NCBI RefSeq assembly: GCF_035084215.1
Contig: NC_090356.1
Coordinates: forward strand, 17,980,001-18,044,000
DNA length: 64,000 nucleotides
Reading direction: 5' to 3'
From: Heptranchias perlo
Taxonomy: Eukaryota
Shown: one piece after another, positions 16,660 through 63,870 of the stretch
Layout of the letters: each line of letters starts with the position of its first letter
How positions within the stretch are numbered: position 1 is the first letter of the stretch
Notes under the pieces: generated by a model
Told to the model about the DNA's origin: nothing
Database searches by the model: none
The model's input: only the letters and a program-made list of their open reading frames with translations
Translations under genes and position numbers: made by a program

Positions 16660-16870
16660 CTTGACACAACTCCGAGCGAGCGAGCGGAGCGGAGCGACTC
16701 GAGCCGCTGGTCCGGCGCGCGACCTTCGACCCGCCTAAAATGGCGGCCGAAAGACTTCCGGGCCCCACTTTTTTCACAGCGATCTGGAGGAGTTTGAGTC
16801 TCCCGGCAGAGGCCTTGAGTCCTCCTGAAAGAGAGAGCGAGCAAAACATGACGGTAATGAGAGGAAAATA
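16660..16870. promoter_or_regulatory. CpG-rich CASP9 promoter/5'UTR with YY1 (AAAATGGCGG, 16737-16746) and ETS/GABPA (ACTTCCGG, 16754-16761) motifs
   Basis: High local CpG density (about 16320-16850) immediately upstream of the ATG; motifs read directly from the sequence. Confidence 0.7.
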
Positions 16871-16959
16871 ATATTGAAATACAAGCCAACTCCGAATACA
16901 GGCTTAGGACCAAGGTCATTGCTTTTACAAGGGCAAGGATGAGGAAGACCTGTCGGCTC

Positions 16960-18330
16960 ATCTTTAATTCATCCACCCAGACCAACCCTACATTCTTCGC
17001 ATTGCTGCATCTAGTTGTTTCTTAAATTATTCCAGACTTTCTGCCTCCACCACTCTGTTCCAAGTGTTGATCTCACTGCACGAAGAACTAACTCCTGATA
17101 TCGGTCCTAAAGTTTCCTTTTACTAGTTTGAATCTGTCTCCTTGTCCTCTTCCCATATTTTAAAGTAATATTCTGCATTAACCTTTTTCATACCATTCAC
17201 TATAAGATTACCTCTAATTTAGAGGCTGGAAGCCTATGTCTCTCCAGTCTTTCAGCCTCATTGCTTTTCTCTATATTCCCAAGCACTCAGTGATCAGAAC
17301 TGGACACAGTCCTCGAGGTGTGGTCTGACCAGAGCACTGTACAGTTTAACCATGACTTCCTCTGATTTGTTTTGATTACATGCTTCAATATTCTATTGGC
17401 TTTGTTCATTGTTGCTCTGCATGGCTGGACATGTTGAGTCCACTAAAACTGCTAATTCTCTTTCAACTTCATTCTTAGCTATTTTAACGTCATTCATGAA
17501 GTCTGTATGTTGCCCATATTTCCTTCCTCTGTGCAGCACTTTACACTTGTCTGCAATTATTTTTCTACCTTTTTTTCAGCCAACTCACACATTTTGTTTA
17601 TTCGTTTTCTAGTTTCTGAGTTGCTTGATTTGATTCCATTGCTCCTTTTAGATTTGATATTGTTGACAAATTTAATCAGTTTGCATTGAGGTTCTGAATC
17701 CAAGTCGTTGATGTACCCTAGAAACACCAGTGGTCCCAACGCGGAGCTCTGGGGCCCCTCAGTGCTTAGCCCCTCCCCCCACCTCTGACATTAGCCCTCT
17801 AACTTTCCAACCTCAGCCAGCTTCTTATCCATACTCAAGTTTTGCCCTGAACCTTCAGAGCTTTGAGCTTAATTAGTAATCTTTCGTGTGGAACTTTGTC
17901 CTTTGGAAGCCGAAGTACACAACTGTGGGATTACCACAATTACATAGAGTTGTCACTTCCTTTAAGAAATCAAGGGAATTGATCAGGCAGGATCTCCCCC
18001 ATCTTGAAGCTATATCAACTGCTGTTAACTAGGTGGTTGTTGTACAAATAATCCTCACGTTTACTCTTAATAATTAATTCCATGTTTTATGAAATTGTAG
18101 ACTAATGAGTCTGTAGTTGCCTCTGTCACCCTTGAATATGGGGAGGGAGGAAGCCTCCGAGAGCTTGTAGATTTCAAATAAAAATCATTGGACTATAACT
18201 TGGTGTTGTAAAATTGTTTACAATTGTCAACCCCAGTCCATCACCGGCATCTCCACATCTTGAATATGGGCACCACGTTAGCTTGTTTAATGTCTCCATT
18301 GTGTATTGACTTCCTCATAATTGTCGGTGT
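16960..18330 (-). mobile_element. Highly degraded CR1-type LINE (interrupted by a 116-bp insertion)
   Basis: Minus-strand MGPLVFLGYINDLDS…KFVNN (RT motifs), cagaactggacacagt…tgtggtctgacc. Confidence 0.65.
18143..18258 (+). mobile_element. Short 5'-truncated Penelope-like element fragment with 12-bp target-site duplication
   Basis: Flanked by direct repeats cttgaatatggg (18131-18142 and 18259-18270); body ggactataacttggtgttg…ccccagtccatcaccggcatctccacat resembles recalled elasmobranch Penelope termini. Confidence 0.65.
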
Positions 18331-20459: not shown

Positions 20460-20694
20460 ATGACAAGTTGGCCGCTGCTGATTGGTTGGCTTCTGGAACT
20501 GGTCGTGGTTTATTTATAAATTGAAGGATTTTCGCGATTTAAAAACGCCGGAAATCGAAAACTAAAAATAAATAGTAAATTTATTATTATTAATAATAAT
20601 AATGGGGAGCTTGAGACGAGCAATGCGATGGCACGGTGGTTGCTAGGAGCGGTGGGGATTTCCGGTTCCGGTCTGTGTGGCGGTGGGTCTGGAG
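20460..20694 (+). promoter_or_regulatory. DDOST promoter/5'UTR: ERSE-like element (20467-20485), ETS-like CCGGAA/TTCCGG motifs, CpG island extending into exon 1
   Basis: GTTGG-N9-ATTGG (= CCAAT-N9-CCAAC on the minus strand); ccggaaat at ~20548; tttccggttccgg at ~20659. Confidence 0.6.
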
Positions 20695-38430
<17,736 letters not shown>

Positions 38431-40673: not shown

Positions 40674-40811
40674 ATGTTGCTCACCATGTACTGTGTGCGG
40701 CGAGACTTGAGTGAGATCACCTTCACCCTGCAGGTGGACGGCGGCCTGGAGCTGGAGACTTTCCGGGTACTGTGCGAAATGGAGAGCGGCGTCCCCGCGG
40801 CCGAGAGCCAG
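40674..40811 (+). CDS. DDI2: DDI2 exon 1 ([49 protein letters not shown])
   Basis: 138 nt; close match to recalled vertebrate DDI2 N-terminus; CAG|gtgaga. Confidence 0.96.
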
Positions 40812-43800: not shown

Positions 43801-46800
43801 TCTCCCTCTGCTTGCTCCTTGCTAGGTTCCGCCTGTGAAATCAATCCGAATAGTGTGCCAGTACTCGTGGTTAACGTTCACAAATGAAGAACGGCACTTA
43901 GACAAGGTGTCAGAGGATGATCTGCCCACGTGGTTCATACCGTAGCAGGGAGAGGAGGAAAACATTAAAATTAAAAAACTTTCTCTTTGAGTTTCCAAAC
44001 ATATTCACAAATCTTTATACTTCCTATGTTATCGTGGCTCTTGACCAATTTCCACCATGGGGTAGTTGAGACTGTGGCTGACATGTCTGGGTGAGGTGTC
44101 TGCCAATGGCAGAATCATTGTATGTTAGTTAAATCTGAGTGCTTTTTCTGTGTTAGATAATCTTTGCGGAGAGGCCATTGACTGACAATCAGCTGACACT
44201 GGCAGCGTATGGACTGAAAGATGGTGATGTACTGGTGTTGCGACAGTTGGATAGACCGCCGGTACAGCCTAGTCTACCACTCCCAGGTGTAACAGGTGAG
44301 AGATCCTGTAGGAACAGTTCACCAGTAATTTTGCCAATAGTATTTGTGATTTGATTACCCATCTCACTTACAGGCCCTGTATACACATACTTGTAAATGT
44401 CCATCTTTGAATCCTCCCCTAACACTGTTGTGGCAGCAGAGAGAATTACAAGGGTGATTAATCCTTTTAAGGTGGTTTTGGTATAGGGGACTGTATGGTG
44501 TCAGGACATTAGTCATCCCTTTCCTGCATCCTAACTGAAAGAGGTTTGTACTTACTCATATAGCATGTTATCGTGTCTTTCAAATGCCTCAAAGTGCTTC
44601 AAGTACAGTTATTTTGAAGTGTAATCACTGTTATGCAGGCAGGCACGTCCCACAAACAGCAATGATATATTCTTTTGGTAATGTTGTTTGAGGGAGGACT
44701 CTTGGCCAGGATATCAGAAGAACTCCCTGCTCTTCTTTGAATTCTGCCAAGGGATCTTTAACATCCAGCTGAACCACTTGAACAGACATTTGTGTAACTA
44801 AGGGATAGCACCTCCAACAATGCAGCACTCCCTCAGTACTTACTGCACTGGAGTATAGCCTCGATTATGTTAAAAATAATATCAAAAGTTAGAGTTTGTT
44901 TGTAAAGCAATTGGTGCAATCTTGACACCTTTAATGAATCCTACTTTTTCAATTTAGAGGTGATTTGCTATTCCATAGATTTGTTTTAGATTGCAGGTGT
45001 CTTATGCAACTCAATATCTCCACCACCATGCTGCATCGAGCGTACTAATTCAGAATCCTAGTGGTATGCAGAGAATGTAGATGAAGAAATGTTGCATACA
45101 GACCAGAAAATTTTAGGTTTAGATCCCTGGTCTATGGCGATTTAGCATTACAGTTGGCTTTAGCAATCCTGGATTAGGGAGGACAAAATCAGCTAATTTT
45201 CCTGAAACAGCTTGTGGGCATCACTGTCTGACCTCATGCATAAATAATGGACACTTGGATGCAGTACTGGAGAGTGTTCAACGCTCGTGGAACCCTACTC
45301 TGCAGGGAGTCAATGCCTTCAGGAGAGGAGAGAAGGTTTGCAACAATCTTCGAAAAAAAGTCCATTGGAGCATTTTCTTCATTCTTCTAATGAGAGCATG
45401 CTCAACACAATGTCTGAACTAGACTATTCTTTATCCAGAGTTGTTACAGTTCACATATTGTGTACCACTTAATCACTTCAGGTTTGGAAATATTTTTGCA
45501 TTCTTTTGTACAGGTTGGGAAGGGAGAGTCCAATGGGTGGACCCCTGCTTTTATGATGTGCCGACATGAAAATATCGCTGTTAGTGATGGATTTATTGCC
45601 ATGGTACAGTACATGGAGGATGATTCTAGCTGAAGAATGAAGATCCTGCCAGGGGAATCTAACTTTCATGTGTTGACTCATTGTTCATACCTGTGGTACA
45701 GGCTCTACTCTTCAAAATGGCTTTGGTGTAGCTTGCTCACAAACTTGTTTTTTTTATTATTAATTCCAGAGGTATGAGTGGCTCTAAGTTTTCAATAGTA
45801 CACACTGTTTCTCAGCACTGGCAATAGTGCGGGGTTTACCTGTTGGTCATTGTATTTTTTATCTTGACATTTCTGTCTTTTCCCCTCCTTTAGGACTTCC
45901 TAGGATTGATTTCAGTGGTATCTCCGTGCCTGGATCATTGAGGCCCAGAATGCCTGAGTCTGGAGTAGCTCACCAGCAGCCACCAACGCCAACTCCCAGT
46001 AGCTCTACTGCTTCTCCTCCCCCTGTTCCACCTCCACACAGTTTGGAAAATAATCCTATGTTACTGCGGGACATGCTTCTGGCCAACCCACACGAGTTAT
46101 CGCTGTTGAAGGAGCGGAATCCTCCATTAGCTGAGGCGCTTCTTAGCGGAGATCTTGGTAAATATGGAGATTCTGTCTTGTTATTGATGCTGTTCTCCCT
46201 TCCATGTTTATACTGCTTCACTCCTATTTTTCAATTGTGTTACTTACTTGTATTGCCTTGTTCTCTCCTTTGACTCTGAATTTGCTGTAGAATATCTGTA
46301 TGGAATTCTTATTCAGCAGGGTGATGAGTTACTCACTGTGTAACTGTATGGGCTTTTGCTTACTAAACTGTTTAAATTGATTAAAATATTAGGAAATTGA
46401 ATTCAATCGTTTTATTTAATATAATGATCTAACCAATGAACCTAGTTAGAAAAAGATTTTCTAGATCAGCTTTGGGATTTCAATGTGCATTAGTTTCAGG
46501 CGGCTTGTACAATGCAGTCATGGCTCCTTAGAATCGTAGTCCTGTGGTTGCTGATGGACACGTTTAGGAATATAGGAGCAGGAATAGTCCATTCAGCCCC
46601 TTGAGTCTGTTTTATCATTCAGTTAGATCATGGCTGATCTGTATCTTAATTCCATCATCCTGCCTTGGTTCCTTAACCCTTAATACCCTTACCCAATAAA
46701 AATCTATCAATCTCAATTTTTAAATTTGCAAATGACCCCCAGCCTCAACAGTTTTTTGAGGGAGAGTGTTCCAGATTTCCACTACCCTTTGTGTGAAGAA

Positions 46801-49800
46801 GTGCTTCCTGACATTACCCCTGAACAGCCTAACTCTAATTTTAAGGTTATGCCCTCTTGTTCTGGACTGTCCCATCAGAAGAAATAGTTTCTCTCTATCT
46901 ACCCTATAAATTCCTTTAATCATCTTAAAACCTCAATTAGATCACCCCTCAATCGTCTATACTCAAGGGAATACAAGCCTAGTCTGTGCAATATAGCCTC
47001 ATAATTTAACTCTTTTATCCCCAATATCATTCTGGTGAATCTGCGCTGCACTGCCTCCAAGGCCAATACATCCTCCCTGAGATGCGGTGCCCAGAACTGA
47101 ATGCAGTACTCCAGAGGGGGTCTAACAGCTGTAACATAACATCCACCCCTTTCTATACCAGCTCTCTTCAGATAAAGGCCAACATTCCATTTGTCTTTTA
47201 AATTATTTTTTGTACCCGACCCCTGGCTTTTAGGGATTTCTGTACTTTGACCCTTAAATCTCTCTGCTCATCCACAGTTCCCAGCTTCTCACCATTTAGA
47301 AAATGCTCTGATCTATCTTTCTTGGGTCCAAAGTGGATGACTTCACACTTCCCCACATTGAACTCCATCTGCCATAGTTTTTCCCACTTTCTTAACCTAT
47401 CAATGTCCCTTTGCAACTTTCTGTTCCCATCGACACTAGTTACTGTGCCACCTAACTTGGTGTCGTCAGCAAACTTGGATATACAAGTTTTACCTGACTG
47501 GGGGAGGGTACACCATAGTGCAGGATGTTTAAGACGCTCAGCAGGATGTGCCATGCTGCTTAGAAGTGGGAGCAGGGGTGAGGGGGAGACTTATTGAAGT
47601 CAAGCTTAGGGATGAGTTTGTGATCTTTTATGTGCTTTATGATAAATGATAGTTCCTCACCCACCTCACTTCTTCACTATATACCGTCAAAACTATCATC
47701 TCAATTTTTTGTTGTAGAATACGATGGAAAATTGGGGAGAAAGGTTTTGCATAAATTGTTTGGTTATTTTCTACTTTCATTATTCACCAATTAAAAATAA
47801 GACTCGGACCCTTAACCAACGAGGATGAAAATTGACAAGTGGTAGCCGTGGCTCAGTGGTAGCACTCTTGCCTCTGAGTCAGAGGGTTGTGGATTCAAGT
47901 CCCGCTCCAGAGACTTGAGCACATAATCTAGGCTGACACTTCAGTCCAGAATTGTCGGAGGTGTCATCTTTCGGAAAAAACGTTAAGCTGAAGCCCCCTC
48001 CCCGCTTTCTCAAGGGGACGTAAAAGATCCCATGTCACTATTCGAAGAAGAGGAGGGCAGTTCTTCTGGTGTCCTGGCCAATATTTATCCCTCAATCTCT
48101 TAAAAAAAAGTTTATCTGGTCATTTATTGCTATTTGTGGGACCTTGCTACCGCTAATTAGCTGCTGCGTTTCCCTAAATTACGACAGTAACTAGATTTGA
48201 AAAAGTATTTAATTGGCTGTGAAGCCCTTTGGGACGTCCTGAGAAAGTGAAAGGCGCTTTATAAATGCAAGTTTGTTCTTTCTTTGATGGTCATGACAGA
48301 CACAAGAAATTTCATTATGGGCCACAAATGGCTAGTTGGATGAGTTGCCATAGGGCAGCCAGCAAAGAGTCAGTGCCTTCAAAAGAGGAAGAAAATTTGC
48401 ACAAAAACCAAGAAATGTCAGGTAAAATTCAACAGTACAGTCATGATGTGTGATAGCATTAGCTGAGAGCTCTCCTCACACCTCATGAAACAGAGGTAGG
48501 AAGTCTCCACATTATTAACTAGAATTGAGCCAAGTGTATGGCTGTGCTCATTACTGCTCAGTCCACTGCTGTTGTATATTACGCACTGTGTCAATGGTTA
48601 AGCAATCCTTTTGAGTTCAGTCTGTGCTATCTCTCCATAAGATAAGTTTATAAGGGTGCTACGAGAGCAGCAATTGGAACGAGCGCGTCGAGAACAGGAG
48701 AGGATCCGACTTCTGAATGCCGACCCCTTTGACCTGGAGGCACAGGCCAAAATTGAGGAAGACATCAGGTACAGAACAATTGCTGTTCAAGCTGTGGGTT
48801 TTCCTACTTAACGCAGGCTGCACACCAAAGTAACTCTTTGTATGAAGCACTTAGAGACATTCCGATGTTGATAAGGTGCTCTGTAATTGCAGGGATTTCT
48901 TTTCCTTCATTCCTTCCTATCTTCCACACACTTAGAACTCCTAAGATTGTCTGTATTGAGTGGCTTATGTGCGTATTCCTTTACTTCAAAATTCAGTCCC
49001 CTGCATTACGGAGAGGAAAATCGACTAGGGTTCCTGCTCCTGATTACTCTCCAGTGTCCCCTGCTGGAAAATGTGTAGATGTTGGGTGAGGACAGAATTA
49101 GGCTCAGCTGTGATGCACTCTACAGTTGAATAACCAACACACTCTGGGTTAACATATGAACCATGGCTATTTGAGCAAGGTACCAGAGAGTGATCAGAAC
49201 CCACGGAATCATACCCTGGCAAGCAAGCAAGTGCTGTCAGGCAAGGAGGGGAGAAAATTAGAAAGAAAAATATTTCTGAAGTATATTTGTGCTTACAGTG
49301 TTGCTGGAGTAGCGTTTGCCACATTAGTCCACTCCTAGGTCATTGATCATTTTTATTAATTATGCCCTAAATATTTTGTGCAAATTTTGCAACTCCACTT
49401 GTGAAATGGCTGGAGAGTTTTGTCCTTGCACTACGTGATTTTCCCAATCTCCCGCAACCAGTACTCCACTTGGCAGCACCCACAGTTGGTGTCAATTTAC
49501 CTGGGTGTGTGGAATTCTTGGATTGGTCAACCACTGCTTTCATGCTCACTCCATGTGTTTCACAGCACTTGTGATGGTGTTTTTGTAGCCTCTCAGTAGC
49601 ACCCCACATCCCTCACTCCTGTTGGGAATAACAGTAGACACAGGAAAGAGGTGGAAAAGGGTAGCTTTGACAGTGCAGTGCTAACTTTTGCCCTACACCT
49701 CAGATGACCTCTGCTGGCAACTTCTGTTTGGTGAGTGCCTAGATCTGGCCTGTAGTTGTGGTATTGGCTGGACTGCCTCCTTATTCTGTTGTCCTACTGA

Positions 49801-52800
49801 AGGATGCCTTTGTATTGTAGGCAGCAGAACATTGAGGAGAACATGACAATCGCAATGGAAGAATCACCAGAGAGCTTTGGTCAGGTGGTAATGCTCTACA
49901 TCAATTGCAAGGTTAATGGGAATCCAGTCAAAGCATTTGTGGATTCAGGTAGGTTCATATGTGCTAATATGACTAAATTATACATTGGATTCCGAGCTAA
50001 TTTGAAACAATAATTGCAATTGTAAAATCCTTGGTAGCAATGGAGCAGGCCGGGTGGGGGAGCAAATTGAGTAAAGTGGTGAAAGTGTAGGAAAAATATA
50101 TAATTGAATAATATCAAATGTACAAGATCCCTGTGTTTGACAACAGTACATGGGATCTATAGGTTTGGTGCACCATTATTCCATGTGTAACTGCTGTATT
50201 TGTTACGCATGTACACTGGCCACCCGCAGGTATCCTCCATACAGGACATTAAATACCTAATTGCTGCTTTGTCCACATATTCTCCATATACACATTAGTG
50301 CACAATCATTAATGCCTATTACTTATGTGACGGCCGTTCCATCTGTGTGTCCTGCAGACATTAATTTCACCATCACTACTTCCAAGACAAAACATTCCAC
50401 AGTGTTGGAGTAAATATTTAAATTGGAACCATCAAATTACCTTTAGGGCACATCAGCCATGACGTTGCATATGGGCATGATCTCTTTAGTTCAGTTTTGT
50501 GATCTAACAGTGCAATTGTGAACCCAAATGTGTTGATAAGTCTATACTGTCACTAATACAGGAGCACAGATGACAATCATGAGCCAGGCGTGCGCTGAGA
50601 GGTGCAACATCATGCGCTTGGTTGATAGGCGGTGGGCAGGGATCGCTAAAGGTGTTGGAACACAAAAAATCATTGGCAGAGTTCACTTGGGTGAGTAGTT
50701 ATAACATGACACCTATCTGATTTTTTTAGAATTACCAACAGGCTTTCATTACCATATCTGTAGTGCTATGAATTTTAAAGGGTTTGAGGAGATCACAAGC
50801 AGTTGTCTGCATATACAAACTACCATTCCTGCAGAGCTGACAGTGATGGATATGATGTGGTGGTGGGGTTGTGCCAGTTTTCTTCCCTCCTGTCCTAAAG
50901 ATGCTTAGTGGAGGGGGCTTTATCCGGCATCTTGCTATTTCTGATCTGTGTTGATCTGATGTAACATTTGAATGATGAAGTGTTCCAATACTGGCATTAA
51001 AAATGGAAGGAGGAAACGGAACCCAACCTGAAACGATACAGTGAAAGATAGCCAAAAAAAGTGTACTGGTCCTAGCCAAAAATATTATTTTTTGACCCCT
51101 GACCCTGGATGTGTACCTCTTTGTTCTGGGTTTAGTGACAGAACAGGAGTATCTCCCAACAGTTTCAGAGCAGTGTCATCAGCAACTGCAGAAAGCAAGG
51201 GGCTCTGTTGTTAGTAGTCACAGAAAGGGGTCCATGGGCCAAATCAAATACCTAGGCACAAAAATGGAAGGGGGTGGGTAGAAAGCATGGGGGTGTTTAG
51301 TTGTTGTTGGTTTTCAATTCAGCTGGCTTTAGTTGGTGTATTGTGTTGTACAGCCCAGGTTCAGATTGAAGGTGACTTCCTCCCCTGCTCCTTCTCCATC
51401 CTGGAGGACCAGCCAATGGATATGTTGCTCGGACTCGACATGCTCAAAAGGCATCAGGTAAGAGGCAATTCTAGGTAGTGGAGCCAAACTCACTGAGAGG
51501 GGGGATAGCGCAGTTCAAAATTGGGAGCTGATATCCCATGAAGCATCAGCACTGTTTGTGATCATACTGTGCCATTCACCCATTACTTAGAAGTCACAGG
51601 CTCCAGATGTAAACGCCAACAACAATTTCCTGCTGTGTGCTTCCCAACGGAATCCGGGTGGGCAGTTAAAATTGCCCATGGGACTTACCCACCGAGGTCC
51701 CACTCTCCACCCATAGGCTCCAATTTTAACCTGCTTTTCTGAGCAGGAACACCCACTGGAAACTGTCAGGTTTTTTCTTTAAATATGCAAATTGAGCTCC
51801 AATGCGTCATCGGGACCTGACCGTTATTTTAACCAGAGGTCTGCGCAGGGAAGCCTTTATCCTCCGGATCCCACAAAGAAAGTTTATGCCTCCCTTGCCA
51901 CAAGCTCTTCTTCTCTTTCCCAACCCTCCCCCTTCCCCCACCCCCCGATCCTGAGGCCCTCCCGAACCACCTCCTCATAAATTACCTGAGTCCCGGGGAC
52001 CGTTGTTTAGGTCCCCGGTGGCGGCCTCCTGCCACTCAACATTGTGCTCCCGCCCACTGGCCATCTGCTGCTTCCTGCTGGTTTTGGGCAGGAACCTGAC
52101 TGGGCCTATGCAGATGAGGCCTGGGAGTTAAAATCTTCTGGGCCGCTCACTGCCGAGGTTATGCCGATTTGTCGCCAGGATCGGCAACCGTCCGCATGAA
52201 TGCCGCCACGAGTTAAAATCAGGGCTTTAGTGTCCAGGCTCACATGAAGAATGCCGCTTAGGTGAGGTACTGGAGGGTGCCTGACATGAGAGAAATCCAT
52301 GACCCAGCAAGAGTCAGTGCTTTCACGAAAGGAGGAAAGTTTGGCAGAGAAAACCTCTCAAACCATTGTCCCAACCAGCAAAGACACAGAGAAACTAATT
52401 AACAGCCTGGGAGAGAGACCTGGAGTGAACTCTACCCGATGATGATTAAAAGCTCTTGCATAATAAGACAACTTTTTGTCTCATTTATAAAAAATTAACC
52501 CAATTCTGAAGATCTAGCTGTTTAGTTCACTGGTTATTTTAATTTCCATTGTTTGTAATTCTGTTGCTGTTTATTCCTGTCTGCTTGCAGTGTTCAATTG
52601 ACCTGAAGCGCAACGTGCTGGTTATCGGCACCACAGGAACAGAGACCCGCTTTTTACCTGAAGCAGAACTGCCAGAGTGTGCCAGGTTGGCATATGGTGT
52701 ACCACGAGATGATCTTCAGCCTGAGGAGCTGGCAGATGAGGAGCTGGCTGAGGCACTACACAGATCAGCAGAGGAATCTGGTAATTTGCTAAAAGTCTCT

Positions 52801-53836
52801 TGTTAGTAACAGAATTGTGTAAATATAGATTTAATTGTGGTGTGAAGAAATTTAAAATTTGGTGCCCCTGTGTGGGCCGCACGATTACTTAAGGAAGGAT
52901 GTCCCCTGTCCCCACCACCCAAATTCGTGTGCCGTTAGTCTACAGTAAAGGTTGCACATGATGGACTGTGGGTGATGTTCTGGTCCCATGATCCCTCAGT
53001 ATCAGGAAGGTAGGTAGAAGCTTTTTCTTTTCTGTCTTTTGCACATCCTACACAAACTTTGTTTGTGCCAGTCTTGTTCCTTTGACTTTATGAAGGCTGT
53101 TGCTTGGGTCTAATCCCACGGGCTCTGGCAGCCTCCCGTATCTCTTAAAATAGGCTAATTTTTGTGTAAGCCTAGACAGTTTACATTGGCAAGCCCTTTG
53201 ACCACGGAGGGTATCAGAGCTGAGGCCAATCCTGCTCTCATCTACTGACTACACGCAGGAATTCCAGCTGGAGGTACTGGATAGTGATCCGGAACAGGAA
53301 CCCAGGCTGATTTCCCCATGGAGGCCAATTTAAGTGCCCCTATTACAGCCGCAAATGAGATCTGCTGAATCAGCACAAACTGGAGATTGGACTTAGCACT
53401 GAGCCACATAGACTAGAAGGTGCTATGTCAGGCAGAGCCTTTAGCCATCTATAGTTAGACTCACATGGATTCACACTATCTACTAGGGGAAGTGTGGACC
53501 TGTTCTCTTCCCCACTCCATTTTGATATGTCTCAGTGTGCCTGTAACATTGTGTGTGTATTTATAATTAACGAGACAGCAATATCTCCACTCCACTGCTT
53601 TTTTGTTTTGGTCAGTCCAACCACCATCTGGAAGCTGGGTGTGCTAACAGAATGAATACTCTCTAATATTATCGCTCATACTTACACTGAGAGTGTTTGT
53701 GTGGAATGTTAACCTGTTTGATATCCATGGTGATTTGTAATAGTATATGCATGCTGCATGCCTCATTTGGCTAATTGAGTTTGCTGTTGTGGTTTGTTTT
53801 GGTTTTTTTATCCTAACAGGACGCCAGCATCACTGA
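40674..53836 (+). CDS. DDI2: Protein DDI1 homolog 2 (UBL-HDD-retroviral-like aspartic protease-UIM), canonical short isoform, 9 coding exons, 408 aa (411 aa with the downstream exon-2 donor)
   Basis: Exons 40674-40811, 44157-44286/44295, 45894-46157, 48642-48768, 49821-49948, 50562-50690, 51354-51457, 52591-52780, 53820-53836; catalytic [24 protein letters not shown]-like [16 protein letters not shown]. Confidence 0.96.
40830..41650. repeat. Low-complexity (AT/AC)-rich region with poly-C tract at the start of DDI2 intron 1
   Basis: Recurrent atatacac/gatatatac motifs; C-run at ~41224-41238. Confidence 0.55.
44157..44295 (+). CDS. DDI2: DDI2 exon 2 ([30 protein letters not shown]...); two possible donors (44286 or 44295)
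   Basis: UBL C-terminal half; gttag|ATA; donors CAG|gtgtaa and CAG|gtgaga, both phase 1. Confidence 0.92.
44545..44875 (-). mobile_element. DeuSINE (SacSINE1-like), head-truncated
   Basis: Homologous to 22520-22950 (cccacaaacagcaatga; gcagcactccctcagtact). Confidence 0.72.
45085..45330 (+). mobile_element. Degraded SINE-like repeat (family B)
   Basis: cagaccagaaa…atccctggtct…ggattagggagg…gagtcaatgccttcaggagagg. Confidence 0.5.
45894..46157 (+). CDS. DDI2: DDI2 exon 3 ([13 protein letters not shown]...[38 protein letters not shown])
   Basis: HDD-domain motif; 264 nt, phase 1-1. Confidence 0.95.
46565..47487 (-). mobile_element. CR1-type LINE 3' part
   Basis: [12 protein letters not shown]…[15 protein letters not shown]; DREKLF…RTRGHNLKI. 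Confidence 0.9.
47843..48285 (+). mobile_element. tRNA-derived DeuSINE (SacSINE1-like), near full length
   Basis: A box gtggctcagtggtag, B box ggattcaagtcc; Deu-domain core ggacgtaaaagatcccatg…gaagaagag…gtcctggccaatatttatccctcaa; tail aaaggcgctttataaatgcaagt. Confidence 0.85.
48642..48768 (+). CDS. DDI2: DDI2 exon 4 ([43 protein letters not shown])
   Basis: 127 nt; [17 protein letters not shown] motif. Confidence 0.95.
48990..49235 (+). mobile_element. Degraded SINE-like repeat (family B)
   Basis: gggttcctgctcctgat…gtgaggacagaattaggctcagctgtgatg…gcaaggtaccagag. Confidence 0.6.
49821..49948 (+). CDS. DDI2: DDI2 exon 5 ([42 protein letters not shown])
   Basis: 128 nt; contains the catalytic Asp (DSG). 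Confidence 0.97.
50562..50690 (+). CDS. DDI2: DDI2 exon 6 ([43 protein letters not shown])
   Basis: 129 nt; RVP domain; TGG|gtgagt. Confidence 0.97.
51354..51457 (+). CDS. DDI2: DDI2 exon 7 ([35 protein letters not shown])
   Basis: 104 nt; ends in phase 0, CAG|gtaaga. Confidence 0.97.
51640..52226. mobile_element. Possible non-autonomous DNA element (MITE-like), GC-rich, with imperfect attttaac/gttaaaat inverted termini
   Basis: aattttaacc at ~51722 and ~51826 versus gttaaaat at ~51665, ~52127, ~52212. Confidence 0.35.
52591..52780 (+). CDS. DDI2: DDI2 exon 8 ([36 protein letters not shown]...[16 protein letters not shown]; end of RVP + UIM)
   Basis: 190 nt, phase 0-1; gcag|TGT, CTG|gtaatt. 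Confidence 0.96.
53100..53410 (-). mobile_element. Degraded SINE-like repeat (family B) in DDI2 intron 8
   Basis: agcctagacagt…gatccggaacaggaaccc…gagatctgctgaatcagcacaaac. Confidence 0.55.
53820..53836 (+). CDS. DDI2: DDI2 exon 9 coding part (GRQHH*); the exon continues as UTR to a donor at 53880
   Basis: Acceptor ttttttatcctaacag|GA; resembles the recalled human C-terminus ERQKP*; donor CAG|gtattt 44 nt after the stop. Confidence 0.85.
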
Positions 53837-55166
53837 TGCATGTTGCACTTGTGCCGCCCCTGAAGATGATCACAGTCCAGGTATTTAATGTTCTTTTGCT
53901 TTTAAATAACTTAGAGTGCGGCACAACAGCCAAACATTCATACAGGAGATATTTGCGTTGAATTATATGCCCTGTTCCAATAATGTAACTTCTCATTTTC
54001 CTCTTCATGTACTGAAGATGAATAATGCCTTTTGCACTGGGCAGTAGGAGAGTCACTTTGAGTTGCACTCCCATTACTTTCAGTGAAAAACAAAATACTG
54101 AGGTGAGCTGTTCCTGTATCTCAATCATCCAACAGATTAAAGTGTTCCCAGCCATCTCCACATCAATGTTGTGGGGTTTCATTATCCTGAGCAGAAGTGG
54201 GACATTCCTACCTGAAAAATCACTAACAATCTTATCCCCCAATTCCCATATCATGTCACGAGTAAGTTCACTGTATAATATCTAGATACTACTTCAATTC
54301 TTGTTACTATACAATGTTTCACTATAAAGTGTACTTATCAGGGCTGAAGTTGTGAGTTAAGTTCACAATGCAGAGCCTTGTTAGAGATTAGGTCATTGAT
54401 AGGGAAGTGACAACACGACAGGGCTATAACACCATAATAGGGATATGTAATACTGTAGCCCACTTCTCGGACCTGCGCTCACCACTAGAGGCACTTGGTG
54501 CCTGCAGCAGAGCCTTGCAACTTTGGCTCAATTGTTTCTTGCTCATTCGTTCATCCTGGACAAACCTTAGGATAGACCCTTGGCCACTCCAGTAGTTTTA
54601 TGCCCTCTAAAGTTGTGATTTTTCCCTCACTCTGATCCTTTGTAAAAACTCAGACCACAGAATAGTCCCGTTTGTTGTTTTTTTTCCCCTCAGCAGCCAG
54701 GCCTTGTTTTCACAGAAGGAAAAGTTCTCAATCATTTCTGCTTTAGAAATGGCTGCTCCCAACCTGTGAAAGTTCAGCATTACCACTGACGTTTAGTGAC
54801 TTTCAGTACATTTTACAAATTAGGGGACGGATGCATGTCAGAAGTGGATAATATATATCCAGCAGCAGGCAGCTCGGGTTCAACCTATCTCCAGGACAGC
54901 CCAAACTCTGGAGAAATACAATACATTTCACTGGAGGATAAACATTTTGTACGCTGCAACATACACCATTGATGCTCCTGAGGTAGAGCTGTGTTGTGCT
55001 GCCAAGGATATCCGGTTCCACGGGTGTGAGTTGGATCCATAGCTCAAACCTTCCTGAGGATTTTATGGCAAAGTGGCTGCTTGAGGAAGGAAAGCTCCTG
55101 TCTACGGAACAGATTGAAGGAATGCTGGAATGTCAACAAAACCTCCCGAGGGGGCGGGAGGTTGGA

Positions 55167-55622
55167 GAAAGAAAGAGCTTTTATATAGTGCTTTTCACAA
55201 CCTAAGGATGCTCCAAAGCGCTTTACAACGAATGAAAGTGCTTTTGAAGTCTAGTCACTGTTGTACTGTAGGGAAACAAGGCAGCAAATTTGCACCAGCA
55301 AGGTCCCACAAACTATAATGAAATATTGACCAGATAACCTGTTTCTTAGTGATGTTGGTTGAGGGATAAATATTGTCCAGGACATCGGGGAGAACTCTCC
55401 GGTTCTTTGAATAGTGCCATAGGATCTTTTATGTCCACCTGAGAGGGCAGACAGGGCTTTGGTTTAACGTCTCAACCGAAAGACGGCACTTCTAATAGTG
55501 CAGCACTCCCTCAGTATTGCACTATGGTGTCAGCCTAGATTATGTGCTCAAGTCCCTGAAATGGGACTTGAACCCATGACCTTCTTACTCAGGTGAGAGT
55601 GCTACCACTGAGCCAAGGCTGA
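55167..55622 (-). mobile_element. DeuSINE (SacSINE1-like), near full length, in DDI2 intron 9
   Basis: gagagtgctaccactgagccaaggctg head; Deu core; tttatatagtgcttttcac tail. Confidence 0.83.
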
Positions 55623-55966
55623 GATCTTTGAAGAGACAACTAAAAGCAGCTAGCCACGTGTCCTCCAAAGGACACTGGGATTTAGGCTTCTTCTTTACTG
55701 TACTGCCGCTAGGGCTTGGATGGCCTTCATGATCAGCTTTGACATTAGGAGGCCACAAAACTAAATCACCTCCTCCAAAATTCTAGGCTTCCTGTCTGCT
55801 AGTGTGGCATATTTGAAACATATCTGTTCATTTGCACGGTTTTTCTGATTGATCAGTTGGATCCCAGTGAATGTTTCAATTTTTTTAACCTTTCTAACTC
55901 GATAAGAGTATTCTTTATTCACAAACTAACTGGGTATTCCATAAGCCCACCTGCTCACTGCAGTCT

Positions 55967-56382
55967 TCATAGAATAATAGAGCACAGAAGGAGGACATTT
56001 ACCCCAACGTGCCTGTGCCAGCTCTTTGAAAGAGCTATGTAATTAGTCCCACTCCCCTGCTCCTCCTCCATAGCCCTGCAAATTTTTCCTTTTCAAGTAT
56101 TTATCCAATTCATTTTTGAAAGTTACTATTGAATCTGCTTCCACCACCCTTTCAGGCACTGCATTCCTGATCATAACAACTTGCTGTGTAAAAAAAAGTT
56201 CTCCTCATCTCCCCTCTGATTCTTTTGCCAATTGTCTTACATCTGTGTTCTCCAGTTACCAACCCTCCTGCCAGTGAAAACAGTTTCTCCTTATTTACTC
56301 TTATCAAAACTCTTCCTAATTTTGAACACCTCTATTAAATTTCGCTTTAACCTCCTTTGCTCTAAGGAGAACAATCCCAGCT
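55967..56382 (-). mobile_element. CR1-type LINE 3' fragment
   Basis: catagaataatagagcacagaaggagg…catagccctgcaaattttt…ctctaaggagaacaatcccagc. Confidence 0.82.
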
Positions 56383-57106
56383 CACCAGTTGCTATATAAA
56401 GTTAGCACAGATGCATCAAGTTAACATGTTTTGAAAACTTTTGATTTAATGCCTGGTTTGTGGCTCCTTCAGTAGTCAAGAAATACATAAATCATCTGTA
56501 ACATTTTAGAAAACTTTTTATATTGTTTGCAGCATTACAAAGGAGTGATTACTGTGTGACACCCTAATAATAAGTAGTTTATGTACAATAACAAGGTGCA
56601 TTTTATAATAAGTGTTCCATAATCTAGTAATACATATTTCAGTGTGTGACTTTAAGGTCCAATATAGCTTCCACTTACCACATATACCGTCAGCTTTCAG
56701 GAAATGATGTCCTTGAGTAAGTTGGAGTAGTGTTGCTCGCTGACTACATGTAACTACGATTGAACTAAGCACCGTGCACTTGAACCCTCCTATTACAATG
56801 TCCTGGGTCAGTAGTTTTTGTTACCGGGGATCATCTTTTTTGAGGTCTGAGATCTCCAGGGACTATAATTGACTTCTGTTGTTTAACGAGAGGTCTTACT
56901 GAGGTTTAAACAAAGGAATTAAAATGTCATCTGTAAAAAGTGGTCATTGGCGTTGCTGTACCAGCAGCACGTGTACAACGCATAGAAACCATAGGACAAC
57001 AGAAGATAGCATTGGGACTGCTGTGTAATTTGGCTGTAAAATGGTTTGGAGTAAGATGTATGCATAGCTGTAATCTGGGATTCCATTTCCTTTTTCTTTG
57101 TTTTAG

Positions 57107-59160
57107 GAAAAGAAAATGGCAAAACTACCTCATTGGAAAGCCCTTCATTACCAGCACCTCATCATCTTCATCTCCCTCTTCCCATTACAAGAAGTGTCGT
57201 ATCTCAAGCCCCCCAAACCCAAAGTCAGTTGGACCGTTCGCTTTCCGTCCCTGCTAGCCTTCCTTCACAAAACCAGAACAAATCTGAATTTACAGGTGCA
57301 AAAAGCCTTCAGATCCCTGAATGCATGGAAATACAGGCAGAAAAACAGACACTGTTAGGACCTTTGGACAACCTGTTGACTCCTCTGTCCCCTCAGAGTC
57401 TGTCTGCTCCTTCTCAGGCGTCATTAGGAAAAAAGCACATACCACCGTATGAAAACATCCATAGCAGCTCACAAAACCCTTTGAAACATCCAACTTCAGA
57501 TACTGACTATGAGTCTCTGCCAAAACGTGTCTTGCCAGACATGAGTCCACATGAGGTTGGCATGGAAAAGAGTGATGTCACACAGGAAGACTATTCTCTT
57601 CTAAATGTAAGAACAAAACCCCAGCAGGAAAGCCTAGACAAAGAAAGTTCGGATTTGGAGGAGCCACCAATAAGAAAAGTTGGAGAGCTTTCTTCAACTG
57701 TACAACCAAATACTGATTCTGTATTTGATCTGGGTGTAGCTGACAGATCAATCCAAGCAGCCTCACCTGAACTGGGTTTTGGCAATGGTTCTTCTAACAT
57801 TGATGAAGTGCAGCAGCCCACTGAAACTGGAAAGGGGATTGATGATCCAGATATCCACCTGCAGCAAATCACTGAGCCATCAGACATGGATCTTGAAATA
57901 GATGAAAAAGATCTGTGTAGCTGTCAAAAGAAAATTGAAGCTGGTGAAAAACCATCATCTGATTCTTTAACTGGGAACATTGAGTTCTGTGATGCTGAAA
58001 TTGTAAACTCTACAGAGCAGCAGGTAGAGGAGATTAGACATGCAGGAGCAACAAGGACAGACAGCAGTGGTCAAAAGGAGGGGAAAGTCCATATTTCAGA
58101 TCAGGAATTTGAGGATGAACATTTAAGTTCAAACGTCTTCATTCCTCAGATGGATAGGCCAGTTAAGTTTACGAGCGGCTACACGAGAGAAAAGTCTGAT
58201 GTTGCCCTTGATGCTGATGAAAAGCATGAAGAGGTACATTTGTTTACTGAGATTAAACCGTCTTCCTATCAGCAGGATCAGGCATCAGACTCTGATCTGT
58301 ACGATTCACACCTCTCCCCTGTAGCTACTTTATTTGAACTGCATCGAGAGTTATTCACGTCTTGTCAGGGAGCTTCCTTGAAGATATCAGCCAATTCAGA
58401 GAACAACTGTCAGTCAGAAGTAACAAATCAGGAAGAACGTGTTCAACCAATGGAAGTGTCTGAAGAATGTTCAGATAGTGACGCCTTGAGCAGGATGTGT
58501 GTCAGTGCAGAACTGGAACCTGATAGTGTGGAAATGGAAAAAGAACCTTTGTTAACAGCTAATCCTGAAATTTTTTCTCAAAGAGACAACAGTGTGGAGT
58601 GCTGCAATATATTTACAGAAAAACTAACTTCAGATGTGACTCAAGATGAATCTGAGGAGGTTTTTGTACAAGAAACGAAGGATGAGGCTGCAGATTCTTT
58701 TATTCTTGTGTCCAAGGATCTAACAAATGAAATGGAAGTTTCCCCCGCTGAGGAATCGTTGGAAACCCAAGCATTATCAGTAAAGAGTAGGGTACATACA
58801 CCTGACACTACAGCAGCTGAAAGCAGCCAGATGTCTCAAAGTACTGAGACACATTTGCAGGTGATGATAGATAATGTAGTCTGTTCTTCAGAGGTCCCAG
58901 AGGTTTCAGCTGCTCCGATGATGTGGGAAGAGACCATGGAAGCAGACATAAATCAGCCTGATAGACATTCTTTGGATAGTTCTCTAGAACTGTGTCCTCC
59001 AGCTTTATCAACCCACACTTTCCCAGCTGCAAATGTTGAACGAATAAGAAGATCAGGATTTACTCAGCAAGAAGCAGTGGAGGCCCTTGAACGTTGTCAT
59101 GGCAATACAGATCTGGCTCTTCTGGTTCTCCTTGCCAGAAGAATTGTGGTTCCTGTCTGA
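57107..59160 (+). CDS. RSC1A1: RSC1A1-like (RS1) coding exon: long acidic Ser/Glu-rich disordered region plus C-terminal UBA; probably terminal exon of a long DDI2 isoform
   Basis: Open frame 57109-59160; C-terminus FPAANVERIRRSGFTQQEAVEALERCHGNTDLALLVLLARRIVVPV matches the recalled RSC1A1 UBA (…AGFTLQEALGALHRVGGNADLALLVLLAKNIVVPT); lies downstream of DDI2 as in mammals; strong acceptor tttttctttgttttag| at 57106. Confidence 0.9.
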
Positions 59161-60017
59161 AGCTGTCCAATTAGAGTCAGTAGGACAGTAATGAGCTGGC
59201 ACTGTTTAGACATCTGGGCCTACAAATGGGTGTATCTGTTACTCGAAAGAAAGCAAGTTTCAGTCAGAATCATTATTTTTGGATAGTGTTGGAAATAACC
59301 TGTTTTAACTGTTGATATCATCTGTCACTGGCAAAATGATTTTTGTGGTCAAGTTACAGCAACATTAGTATTCGTGTTTTCAGTGCCATTCTGGAGTTAT
59401 TAATCCACTCCACAATATTCAACGGTATCCCGTAACCCAACCAATACAAGTCTATTTAAATATCGGCCCTAAAGCTGTTTAGAATTATAACTGCCTACAA
59501 TTTTTAATTGAATATTCTCAAAGCTGGTTTGGAGCAGCAAGGAGAAGGAAGGACAAAAGTGGCAGGTTTGAATCCTTGGAAGATGATCTACGTGTACATA
59601 CAGTATTCATGGTGGAATCATGTTAGATTTACAATTTGTGCAAGGTCAGTAATTGTCTACATTAGATTTGGGGGTTTGTTTTGGTGTTAGGTTTAACCTT
59701 AGGGAGAATTGGAAAGTCTCTATCATGTTTCCTCCATAAAGATTAGAGTTCATGTATCTCACCTTCTGAGTACACAAATTTTTAGAATTCTTTTACTCTT
59801 TTATAGCCTTTGTCAAACCTGACACAGCAACACCACCTCTGCTGGACATTTGTCTTGTGAAATTGAGGCACATTCAGTATTCACAGTTGGCAAAAATTGT
59901 TTTACGAAGGTGTTTGTGCTATTTTTTTCTTAAGCGACAGTAGTGATGCTGCTGTAATCTTCAATGGCTGCTTAGTGCAACCTCTGGTCTTTGATTTTCT
60001 CTTTTTTTAAACCAAAT

Positions 60018-60023
60018 AATAAA
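60018..60023 (+). terminator. Probable polyadenylation signal for the DDI2/RSC1A1 transcript (AATAAA)
   Basis: AATAAA ~860 nt after the RSC1A1-frame stop, followed by GT-rich ggttttgtgtc. Confidence 0.55.
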
Positions 60024-60444
60024 AAAAAGTTATTGCCAAACAAAATACTGGTTTTGTGTCGACTGATGGTAATACTTAAGAAGCTATCTCTCTGAAGAAG
60101 GACAGAAGTTTGAACTGTTTCTTGCCTCTAAAAATTGATTTCAGCCAAAGGTGCACTGACGAAGGAGCACTTTAGTGAGTAGAGGGTGGCGGAAGGGAAC
60201 TATGCCGTAAGTAAACCTTGATTCCATACTGCCATAGAAACCTCTGAGGCTATTCAAGGCCATAGTCTGGAGTCTCTGAGTCAGAATTTCTTCTTAAAAG
60301 CTGTTCAAAAGAATTATGTTTCTTCATTTGGATTCTGTACATACCAGTTGGGATAAGCTGACCTTACTGACTGGGCGACTCACATCAGTGATGCTCTCTT
60401 ATGAGAAGGTTTTTGACACAGATTTTGCCAGGCATCCCTGATAG

Positions 60445-61290: not shown

Positions 61291-62114
61291 TGACCTCTCA
61301 CCTGACACACATAAAGGTGCCTTCATCAATAACAGACTGTCATATTATTCTAGCCAGCTTGAGGTTTTCCTGAGAATTACTTTGGAAACTTGCCATTTCT
61401 TTTTAGTTTCTAAAGCTAACAAATAATAATGCTTTTGAAATATTACATGTCAATTTGAATACTGCTTTAAACATCAGTGAGGGTATTCACAATCTGGAAG
61501 AGAACCTTAATGATTCCAAAAAGACATGGTAAGTATACCCATCTAATATGCCTTAACCTCTATCTGAGAGATGGGAAGATTATCTATAGTGTGAGGGAAT
61601 GATCTTCAAAGATCATTGCACTAGATGGGATCAGCCAGGGAGAATTCAGAGTGAATCAGAATTAAACTTTTGTACCTACTATATTAAAGCTGAACAAGTC
61701 ATGCTCCTTCTAGGACTGATTCCCTGACATCTTGATATCAGTTAATACCAAACATCAGCTCTGTATCTCCATTTATTGGTCATAAGTTAGCTTTTGCATC
61801 AAAGACCCTAAGTTTCTCTGCACCAGTTTTTACTAGGCCACAAAGACCCAAATTGAATTTTTTAAAAATGCTAAGTGTCAAGTAGCTATTGTGATTTGGA
61901 GGTTGTCATGAATATCGAATGCCATTGACAGTTGGCTTCAGTGTCACCAAGTCATTAGTACCCTTGACAATGGCTTTTCTTGACCAATGCCATTGGTTGA
62001 CTCAGATTCATGAACAACATTGTTGATGTTATGATGCAGTCATTGATGTATTATAATGGTCATTGTGTATTAGGATTTGTCTTGGCTTGTCTGCATGTGA
62101 AATCAAGGACAACA

Positions 62115-63870
62115 CTAAAGATTTTTACAAATATATTAAGAGAAAGGGTGGCTAAGAGTAATGTGGGCCCCTTAATGACACATGCAGGTGATATTGTAAT
62201 TGGAAATCAGAAAATGGCAGACTTGCTAAATAGCTACTTTCTATCAGTCTTCACAATAGAGAATGAGGGATAAAATACCAGAGATACAAGGAAAAGTAAA
62301 AATAGGGGAGGAACTAACTAGATTCAATATAAATTTTTAAATGGTGATGGAGAAACTAATGAGATTAAAGATGGGCAAATCTCCAGGACCTGATGGTTTC
62401 CGCCCCAGGGTATTAAAAGAAGTAGGTGAGGAAATTGTTGATGCATTAGTCATGATCTTCCAAACCCAAAAGGAATTGTCCCTTTGGATTGGAAAATTGC
62501 CAATGTCACTCCACTATTTAAGAAGGGTAAGAGAGATATACTAGGAAATTATAGGCCTATTAGTCTAATGTCAGTTGTGGGGAAGTTACTAGAATCTGTT
62601 ATTAGGGGCAGAGTGACTGAGCATTTGGGCAAATATGAGCTGATCAGAGACAGTCAGCATGGATTTGTAAAGGGTACATCATGTCTAATGAACCGAGTTG
62701 AATTTTTTGAGGAGGTAACTAACGTGGTGGATAAAGGGGTGTCTATGGATGTTATTTATACGAACTTCCAGAAGGCACTGTACTAGGTTCCACATAAGAG
62801 ACTGTTAACAAAAATGAGAGTGCATGGAATTGGAGGCAACCTATTGGCTTAGATAGGGAATTGGTTAGGAGGTAGGAGACAGCGGGTAGGGATAATGGGT
62901 ATGTTCTCAAATTGGCAGGATGTGACTAGTGGTGTCCCCCAGGGATCTGTACTGGGGACGCAGCTTTTCACTATATTTATAAATGACTTGGATGAAGGAA
63001 TAGAGTGCTGTATATCTAAGTTTGATGACAACACGAAGTTAGATGGCACATTAAAAAGTGTAGATGGGAGCAGAAAGTTGCTAAGGGACACTGATAGATA
63101 AGTGAGTGGGCAAAACTTTGGCAGATGGATTTCAATGTGGGAAAGTGTGAGGTCATCCACTTTGGACCTAAGAAAGATAGATCCGAGTATTTTCCAAATG
63201 ACAAGAAGCTAGGAACTGGATGAGCAGAGAGATTATGGGGTCGAAGTACAGAAATCACCAAAAGCTAGTGGATAGGAACAAAAAATAATTTAAAAGGCTA
63301 ATGGATGTTGGCCTTTATCTCAAAAGAGCTGGTGTACAGGGGGGTGGAAGTTATATTACAGCTGTACAGAGCTCTGGTTAGACCCCATCTGGAGTACTGC
63401 ATTCATTTCTGGGCACTGCACCTCAGGAAGGTTGTATTGGCCAGAATGATTCCGGGGCTGAAAGAGTTAAGTTATGAGGACAGGTTACATGGACTAGGCT
63501 TCTGTTCCCTTGAATATGGAAGATTAAGGGGTGATCTAATTGAGGTGTTTAAGAATATTAAAGGATTTGTTGGGGTAGATATAGAGAAACTATTTCCTCT
63601 GATGGGAGAGTCCAGAACAAGGGGGCATAACTTTAAAATTAGAGCTGGGCATTCAGGATGATCTCAGAAAGCACCTCACACAATTCTCTCCCTCAAAAAG
63701 CTGATGAGGCTAGGTCAACGGAAAATTTCAAAACTGAGATTGATAGATTTGTGTATGGCAAGGGTATTAAGGGTTATGGAACCAAGGCGAGTAGCTGGAG
63801 TTAAGGTACAGATCAGCCATGATCCAATTGAATGGTTGAACAGGCTCGAGGACCTACTCCTGATCCTATT
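62115..63870 (+). mobile_element. CR1-type LINE, degraded RT domain and 3'UTR
   Basis: KSPGPDGFRPRVLKE, DWKIANVTPLFKKG…[16 protein letters not shown]…ISKFDD, LYRALVRPHLEYC. Confidence 0.9.

Follow-up and report, generated by a model that had tools for sequence, protein, structure and literature searches.

RSC1A1 as a likely alternative last exon of DDI2 in the shark Heptranchias perlo

We analysed a 64,000-nucleotide stretch of the Heptranchias perlo genome (NCBI RefSeq assembly GCF_035084215.1, contig NC_090356.1, positions 17,980,001 to 18,044,000 of the forward strand; hereafter the window, with positions counted from its first letter), which holds a complete DDI2 gene of ten exons on the + strand (40674 to ~60040), the last of them bearing the reading frame of RSC1A1. 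The sequence of the locus and its conservation make it likely that this frame is an expanded ancestral last exon of DDI2, and that skipping of a short stop exon yields a probably minor long isoform, with RBFOX proteins predicted to promote its production. Inclusion of the stop exon (exon 9; the form seen in four sequencing runs) would end the frame at GRQHH and turn RSC1A1 into 3' untranslated region (3'UTR), and its skipping would unite UBL, HDD, protease, UIM, a predicted disordered linker and a UBA in one protein. On the grounds of the conservation described below, we consider it probable that a long mRNA arises and yields protein throughout the jawed vertebrates. The long form would thus be a conserved, already annotated and apparently undescribed isoform: its sequence (RefSeq) and the link between the origin of the UBA and RSC1A1 (2016) are on record, and what we add is the reading of RSC1A1, the junction motif, the TGCATG sites, the tail-bearing invertebrate Ddi1 proteins with UIM and UBA, a branch point in clam models and the predicted switch.

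Two splice products and the conservation of their junction

The argument starts from the joint between exons 8 and 10. Exon 8 (52591..52780, +) encodes the end of the protease and a UIM-like helix (LAEALHRS, 52744-52767), and its last base, G52780, is followed by GT in a phase-1 donor; the acceptor AG of exon 10 lies at 57105-57106. Joined in silico, exons 1-8 and 10 form an open frame of 1087 aa (with the exon-2 donor at 44286) or 1090 aa (with that at 44295), in which the joint reads SAEES-G-KENGK. With exon 9 included (53820..53880, +; a 61-nt stop cassette with AG/GT flanks and its TGA at 53834-53836), the product is a short protein of 408 or 411 aa that ends in GRQHH after the UIM, and the RSC1A1 frame becomes a 3-kb 3'UTR. 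Exon 10 (57107..60040, +) is accordingly coding to 59160 after exon 8 and 3'UTR after exon 9. The RSC1A1 frame spans 701 codons from stop to stop, 683 of them past the junction residue (chance of such a length from base composition ~4e-19); its first in-frame ATG, at 57325, is situated 218 nt into exon 10, would give 611 aa, and is overlapped by an out-of-frame open reading frame (ORF) of 80 codons which opens at a strong ATG (57116..57358, +). An earlier note on this DNA, made from the letters alone, had proposed the phase-1 donor in frame with the acceptor, the 1087-aa product, the GRQHH stop with RSC1A1 as 3'UTR, and the shadowed ATG, and all of these were reproduced; its figure of 675 codons for the RSC1A1 frame has to be replaced by the one given above.

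Exon 9 was also considered as a poison exon triggering mRNA decay, and this was rejected: the short-form stop ends 44 nt 5' of the last junction (the decay limit being 50-55 nt), and the stop form dominates the contigs.

The 1090-aa join is letter-identical to a RefSeq protein of Heptranchias perlo (P0001; XP_067826621.1, 'protein DDI1 homolog 2 isoform X1'), which bears out the guess of the earlier note that long DDI2 models already exist. Among 7997 scored candidates, 273 DDI2 proteins measured 721-2055 aa; the 120 of these that were listed (and to which all counts out of 120 refer) derive from chimaera, sharks, coelacanth, ray-finned fish, amphibians, reptiles, birds and mammals (to monkeys), and 118 of them carry the UBA at their C-terminal end (as scored by a profile built from such proteins). 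The cattle record NP_001422309.1 ('isoform 2', 1021 aa), which we take from its NP_ prefix to be curated, is likewise the long form. Some models depart from the simple joint: P0030, P0055, P0103 and P0131 retain a few residues from the 3' end of exon 9 (e.g. AGVGHRP), suggestive of an acceptor within exon 9 by which the stop is avoided and the long form can be reached in another way, and in P0444 and P0463 (beaver and degu) the RSC1A1 exon follows exon 6, so that the protease domain of their long form is truncated.

Because gene models may copy each other, selection was tested on the sequence itself, in an alignment of 32 long proteins chosen for spread. T414 and S415 proved invariant (32/32), and the conservation of the four-residue block was 0.87, as compared to a mean of 0.28 for linker residues 481-1040. 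The xTTS motif is located 9 residues past the UIM serine in 95/120 proteins, 6 past it in 9 and elsewhere in 5, and is absent from 11 of those listed; in the shark it is part of KTTSLE (57121..57138, +), which lies 5' of the site at which mammalian RSC1A1 has its start Met. The column of that Met holds Met in 12 of the 32 aligned proteins and another residue in the remaining 20, and this shark has none there. In a stand-alone gene the residues 5' of the Met would be untranslated; their conservation thus points to a frame that is entered by splicing from DDI2, and we regard this as our strongest argument. What recurs across the lineages is an in-frame junction at the same place, as expected of a conserved isoform, and the alignment lacks the conserved start codon with which the frame of a stand-alone RSC1A1 would be expected to begin. 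The frame from exon 8 into the RSC1A1 acceptor, the conservation of which the earlier note had put forward for checking, is kept across jawed vertebrates.

At the level of RNA, 24 candidate runs (of presumptive RNA status and without tissue labels) were available, and the four used, all with spliced joints, were aligned on 51200-60200: X1 and X2 (one sample, with the stretch almost whole) and X5 and X9 (other organisms). The joints 7>8, 8>9 and 9>10 were present in all four, and in X1, X5 and X9 a single contig of ~4.4-4.6 kb carried the three of them and ended at 60037-60045, just past an AATAAA poly(A) signal (60018..60023, +). As these joints stand on shared contigs, DDI2 and RSC1A1 form one transcript, in which the stop form is dominant in these samples. 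In the four shark-type runs, the long form can be no more than a minor one. In the zebrafish cluster (15 of its 18 members listed), three Logan-only proteins of 914 aa, identical to the RefSeq long model at 909-913 of 914 positions and with the same junction, come from contigs of 2922, 3022 and 3589 nt, and seven listed members of 408 aa have Logan records. A coding sequence of 2742 nt leaves these three contigs too short for introns, which, to judge from length, marks them as spliced.

Several points weigh against the long isoform. A single acceptor would be in frame one third of the time, so that the frame match alone is weak and the weight falls on conservation. The long proteins are, with few exceptions, automated models, able to copy one another, and the search for longer proteins could by its design list in-frame cases only. 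Among the best 120 of 196 rows no long form is named for human, a great ape or Mus musculus (members of the macaque clusters not being listed). Finally, the main contigs of 4/4 runs include exon 9, and the junction 52780^57107, which the earlier note had asked to be sought, was absent among the 15 joints listed for the four runs (184 more are unlisted, repeats dominate, and contigs drop minor forms).

The long protein and its divergent UBA

The domains of the long protein follow the order of the exons (all +). Exon 1 (40674..40811) lies in a CpG-rich stretch and holds the start codon and the UBL (PF00240, 31.5 bits against a cut-off of 25.4), which is folded in the structure model (predicted local distance difference test, pLDDT, >85). 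Exon 2 (44157..44295) has the two possible GT donors at 44286 and 44295, 9 nt apart, by which three residues are added or omitted, the RefSeq model using the later one. The HDD (PF24669, 100.1 bits) begins after a linker in exon 3 (45894..46157) and continues in exon 4 (48642..48768). The protease domain (PF09668, 177.1 bits; active site DSGA at 264) runs through exon 5 (49821..49948, as far as the catalytic Asp264), exon 6 (50562..50690) and exon 7 (51354..51457; 7>8 joint in 4/4 runs) into exon 8. It is unfolded in the model (residues 247-335 with pLDDT <50, mean 48.9), of which we used the UBL, HDD, helices and UBA only.

Past the UIM helix (387-406 in the model), the linker of 638 aa is acidic in composition (18.8% D+E, 7.2% K+R) and is predicted to be disordered save for one helix (811-830). 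This lone helix (A/T-L-x-ELH-x-L, 58321..58356, +) is conserved in 32/32 aligned proteins and is found at 352-355 in three of four mammalian RS1 proteins (595-618 aa), an area which we presume to be the nuclear shuttling domain. A further conserved motif, LDRS.S.P (57229..57252, +; loose form in 86/120), resembles the 14-3-3 binding consensus. At the C-terminus, the divergent UBA (59020..59157, +; three helices and an LLAR-IVVP tail) is modelled as a three-helix bundle at 1047-1084 with pLDDT >90, that is, with a UBA fold. Its Atlas neighbours are UBA clusters at 0.76-0.79, all below 0.9, and serve as a lead only.

The tail would, in our proposal, give the dimeric protease a putative ubiquitin-binding arm together with the localisation signals of RS1, a function for which we hold the odds to be slightly unfavourable. 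Nearly as much credence is due to a variant that is compatible with the splicing model and differs in its last step only: the long isoform would be real, its divergent UBA would no longer bind ubiquitin, and the tail would serve localisation (Golgi, nucleus), partner binding or stability. In its favour, and against the ubiquitin-binding arm, the shark UBA stays below the Pfam cut-off (PF00627, 19.7 and 18.9 against 22.4 bits), the Pfam UBA has no match in the cattle or zebrafish long form, and the loop reads SGF/AGF (canonically MGF); the linker offers further conserved motifs, and RS1 is described as located at the trans-Golgi network and as having a nuclear shuttling domain, for which no residue numbers are given (PMC7462918). 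On the other hand, the confidently predicted bundle, a mean column identity of 0.73 over 32 species and the same loop change in several invertebrate Ddi1 UBAs argue for a domain that may still bind. DDI2 is described, in the sources as far as accessible, as cleaving NRF1 and so restoring proteasome levels, with interest as a drug target in myeloma, and the way in which it finds substrates without a UBA is stated as an open question in the accessible text of PMC9062259; a conserved UBA-bearing isoform makes this question testable by one extra construct.

RSC1A1 as exon or gene, and the origin of the UBA

An improbable alternative is that RSC1A1 is a gene of its own, expressed from its own promoter or by re-initiation on the DDI2 3'UTR, with the long models reflecting occasional skipping and annotation copying and giving no useful protein. 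The inclusion of exon 9 in 4/4 runs fits with it, as do the low-depth contigs lying just 5' of the exon-10 acceptor in X1 and X2, and the literature on RS1 as an SGLT1 regulator (PMC7462918, as accessible). In many mammals, moreover, exon 9 holds an ATG in frame with RSC1A1 (Logan proteins P0437-P0491), so that re-initiation on the short mRNA could give a stand-alone RS1 there; primates, squirrels and mice each have a different ATG in this role, a lineage-by-lineage variation that speaks against the alternative. Against it stand also the invariant residues 5' of a start Met that is missing in 20/32 proteins, the late and shadowed first in-frame ATG of the shark, the entire long ORFs on three short Logan contigs, and intron 9, in which no CpG island was found (observed/expected 0.17-0.36 versus 0.94 at exon 1). 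The earlier note had seen RSC1A1 as an alternative C-terminal exon of DDI2 from which a stand-alone mammalian gene may derive: the first part is supported, the exon being in frame; as to the second, mammals also keep the in-frame fusion.

Concerning the origin of the UBA, Sivá 2016 (PMC4962041) holds that vertebrate Ddi1-like proteins lost the domain because RSC1A1 was inserted at the locus and captured it, and that non-vertebrates have no UIM; nowhere does the paper use 'splic', 'exon' or 'read-through'. We consider a descent of the vertebrate UBA from the Ddi1 UBA likely, from its position, the shared tail and the Mya branch point. C-terminal UBA matches were present in 70 of 128 mostly non-vertebrate Ddi1 representatives, and a LxA[KR]S-type tail was shared by 118/118 vertebrate and 16/70 non-vertebrate-type UBAs. 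Eight of these 16 tail-bearing non-vertebrate Ddi1 proteins (priapulid, pseudoscorpion, crab and rotifer being named) have a UIM-like motif before the UBA, so that no replacement in vertebrates is needed to explain the UIM. In a UBA tree of 48 columns, tail-less Ddi1 separated from vertebrate plus tail-bearing sequences with 95/97 support (the groups being set by the tail, with no non-Ddi1 outgroup). The shark UBA found the yeast Ddi1 UBA as second of 13 PDB matches (E 0.021, longest alignment), and the UBA profile found two NUB1 chains first, followed by yeast Ddi1 and Mud1, all of them weakly. The spacer between UIM and UBA measures 17-64 aa in invertebrate Ddi1 and ~90 aa in Mya. In Mya arenaria, five models share their sequence as far as the UIM reaches and diverge from there, one being a UBA form of 509 aa and four being short; the residues right past the branch (G, D, E, A) all begin with G, the pattern expected from a phase-1 intron (one species, at protein level).

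Two results count against this descent: once the tail is removed, the tail-less Ddi1 set gives a better score than the tail-bearing one for 16/16 vertebrate UBAs, and Ddi1 UBAs in PDB (E 0.011-0.074) are level with Ede1-type (YBL047C) and NUB1 UBAs. The claim of the earlier note that the UBA is Ddi1-type is supported as far as the resemblance to Ddi1 UBAs goes. Less probable still than the separate gene is the published history (PMC4962041, as accessible), in which an unrelated RSC1A1, inserted between protease and UBA, captured the latter and the in-frame fusion is a secondary read-through: a linker of 600 aa is indeed unseen in the fetched invertebrate Ddi1, but linker and UBA share one uninterrupted exon, the in-frame joint of which with exon 8 matches the Mya branch, the UBA occurs once in its own genome, and the UIM-like motif already exists outside vertebrates.

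Predicted control of exon 9, surroundings and related systems

RBFOX proteins, abundant in neurons and striated muscle, recognise UGCAUG and repress an exon when this site lies within the exon or upstream of it. Three TGCATG lie within 95 nt at exon 9, two of them 72 and 65 nt upstream (53748..53760, +) and one at +18, directly after the stop (53837-53842, +), the arrangement expected of an RBFOX-repressed cassette. It is the only such cluster among the 21 + strand sites in 64 kb, with 0 sites within 200 nt of exons 1-8, and it was equalled in 6/1000 gene-wide and 41/5000 local shuffles. Where gene models translate exon 9 in another frame, the peptides are MHV (in one stingray and four records of rodent type), DAC (in one catshark and eight records from mammals, monkeys included) and MWC (in five records of squirrel type); overlaid, these suggest that the stop is followed by the same hexamer in lineages ranging from sharks to mammals, as inferred from proteins, with DNA read in the window only. 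The shuffle test was chosen after the motif was seen, and the second intronic TGCATG is apparently not conserved in the stingray model P0010, both of which count against the switch. No paper joining Ddi2, Rbfox2 and exon was found in the literature searched (RBFOX target tables and splicing atlases being outside its scope), and Ddi2 and Rsc1a1 were absent from the paper supplements checked. From the placement of the sites, RBFOX bound 5' of and inside exon 9 would repress it, and long DDI2 would be predicted to rise in neurons, heart and muscle, a step to which we assign an even chance.

At its furthest, the proposal, which as a whole we put forward as speculative and rather doubtful, would be that vertebrate DDI2 never lost its UBA, that RSC1A1 is a swollen Ddi1 last exon, that an RBFOX-controlled stop cassette gives neurons and muscle a long form with RS1 localisation signals, that the choice of UBA is perhaps bilaterian-old (as the clam models hint), and that Rsc1a1-knockout phenotypes are perhaps partly due to loss of long DDI2. 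A conserved UBA-bearing isoform would in addition bring two gene literatures together, since long DDI2 or the 3'UTR of DDI2 would be among the targets of RS1 antibodies, probes and knockouts.

Elsewhere in the window, the next gene upstream of DDI2, in head-to-tail arrangement, is DDOST/OST48-like (20647-38430, +), with a weak OST48_N match at exon 1 and a last exon that we assign to DDOST/OST48. A repeat of very high contig depth occupies 55113-56617 in intron 9, and others are found at 7461-8925, 25074-26329, 34995-36889 and 62001-63661; several reverse-transcriptase-like frames appear in the ORF lists, which we take to be of long interspersed nuclear element (LINE) type. A CpG-richer region at 16245-17021 holds several overlapping open frames of 103-137 codons, one of which was tested and had no Pfam match.

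With respect to the published record, the lack of a UBA in vertebrate or human DDI2 is restated in PMC9062259 and PMC7369636; in their accessible texts 'isoform' does not occur, nor is RSC1 mentioned in that of PMC11012796. A paper on a fused DDI2-RSC1A1 isoform was not found in the literature searched (subscription journals and most supplements being out of reach); of ten listed papers in which both genes are named, a single one deals with DDI2. The RefSeq 'DDI1 homolog 2 isoform X1' models and NP_001422309.1 represent the same protein, as records for which no function, regulation or origin was found. Vertebrate short DDI2 shares the product of exons 1-9 and the DSGA site, and the papers describe, in their accessible parts, the UBA-less form only (PMC4962041, PMC7369636, PMC9062259). 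Mammalian RSC1A1/RS1 has the exon, the UBA and the conserved helix in common with shark exon 10; it is described as a separate protein (PMC7462918, as accessible), whereas the shark lacks a Met there and its frame is reached by DDI2 splicing. The closest likeness is to yeast Ddi1, Schizosaccharomyces pombe Mud1 and invertebrate Ddi1, which have the same domain order as the long form (UBL-HDD-RVP-UBA): the yeast Ddi1 (2MR9) and Mud1 (1Z96) UBAs are among the best UBA matches of the shark UBA, and invertebrate Ddi1 shares the UIM-like motif and the LxA[KR]S tail. In comparison to Ddi1, the long form is set apart by ~640 disordered residues between UIM and UBA (17-90 there) and by a UBA that is divergent and made optional by splicing.

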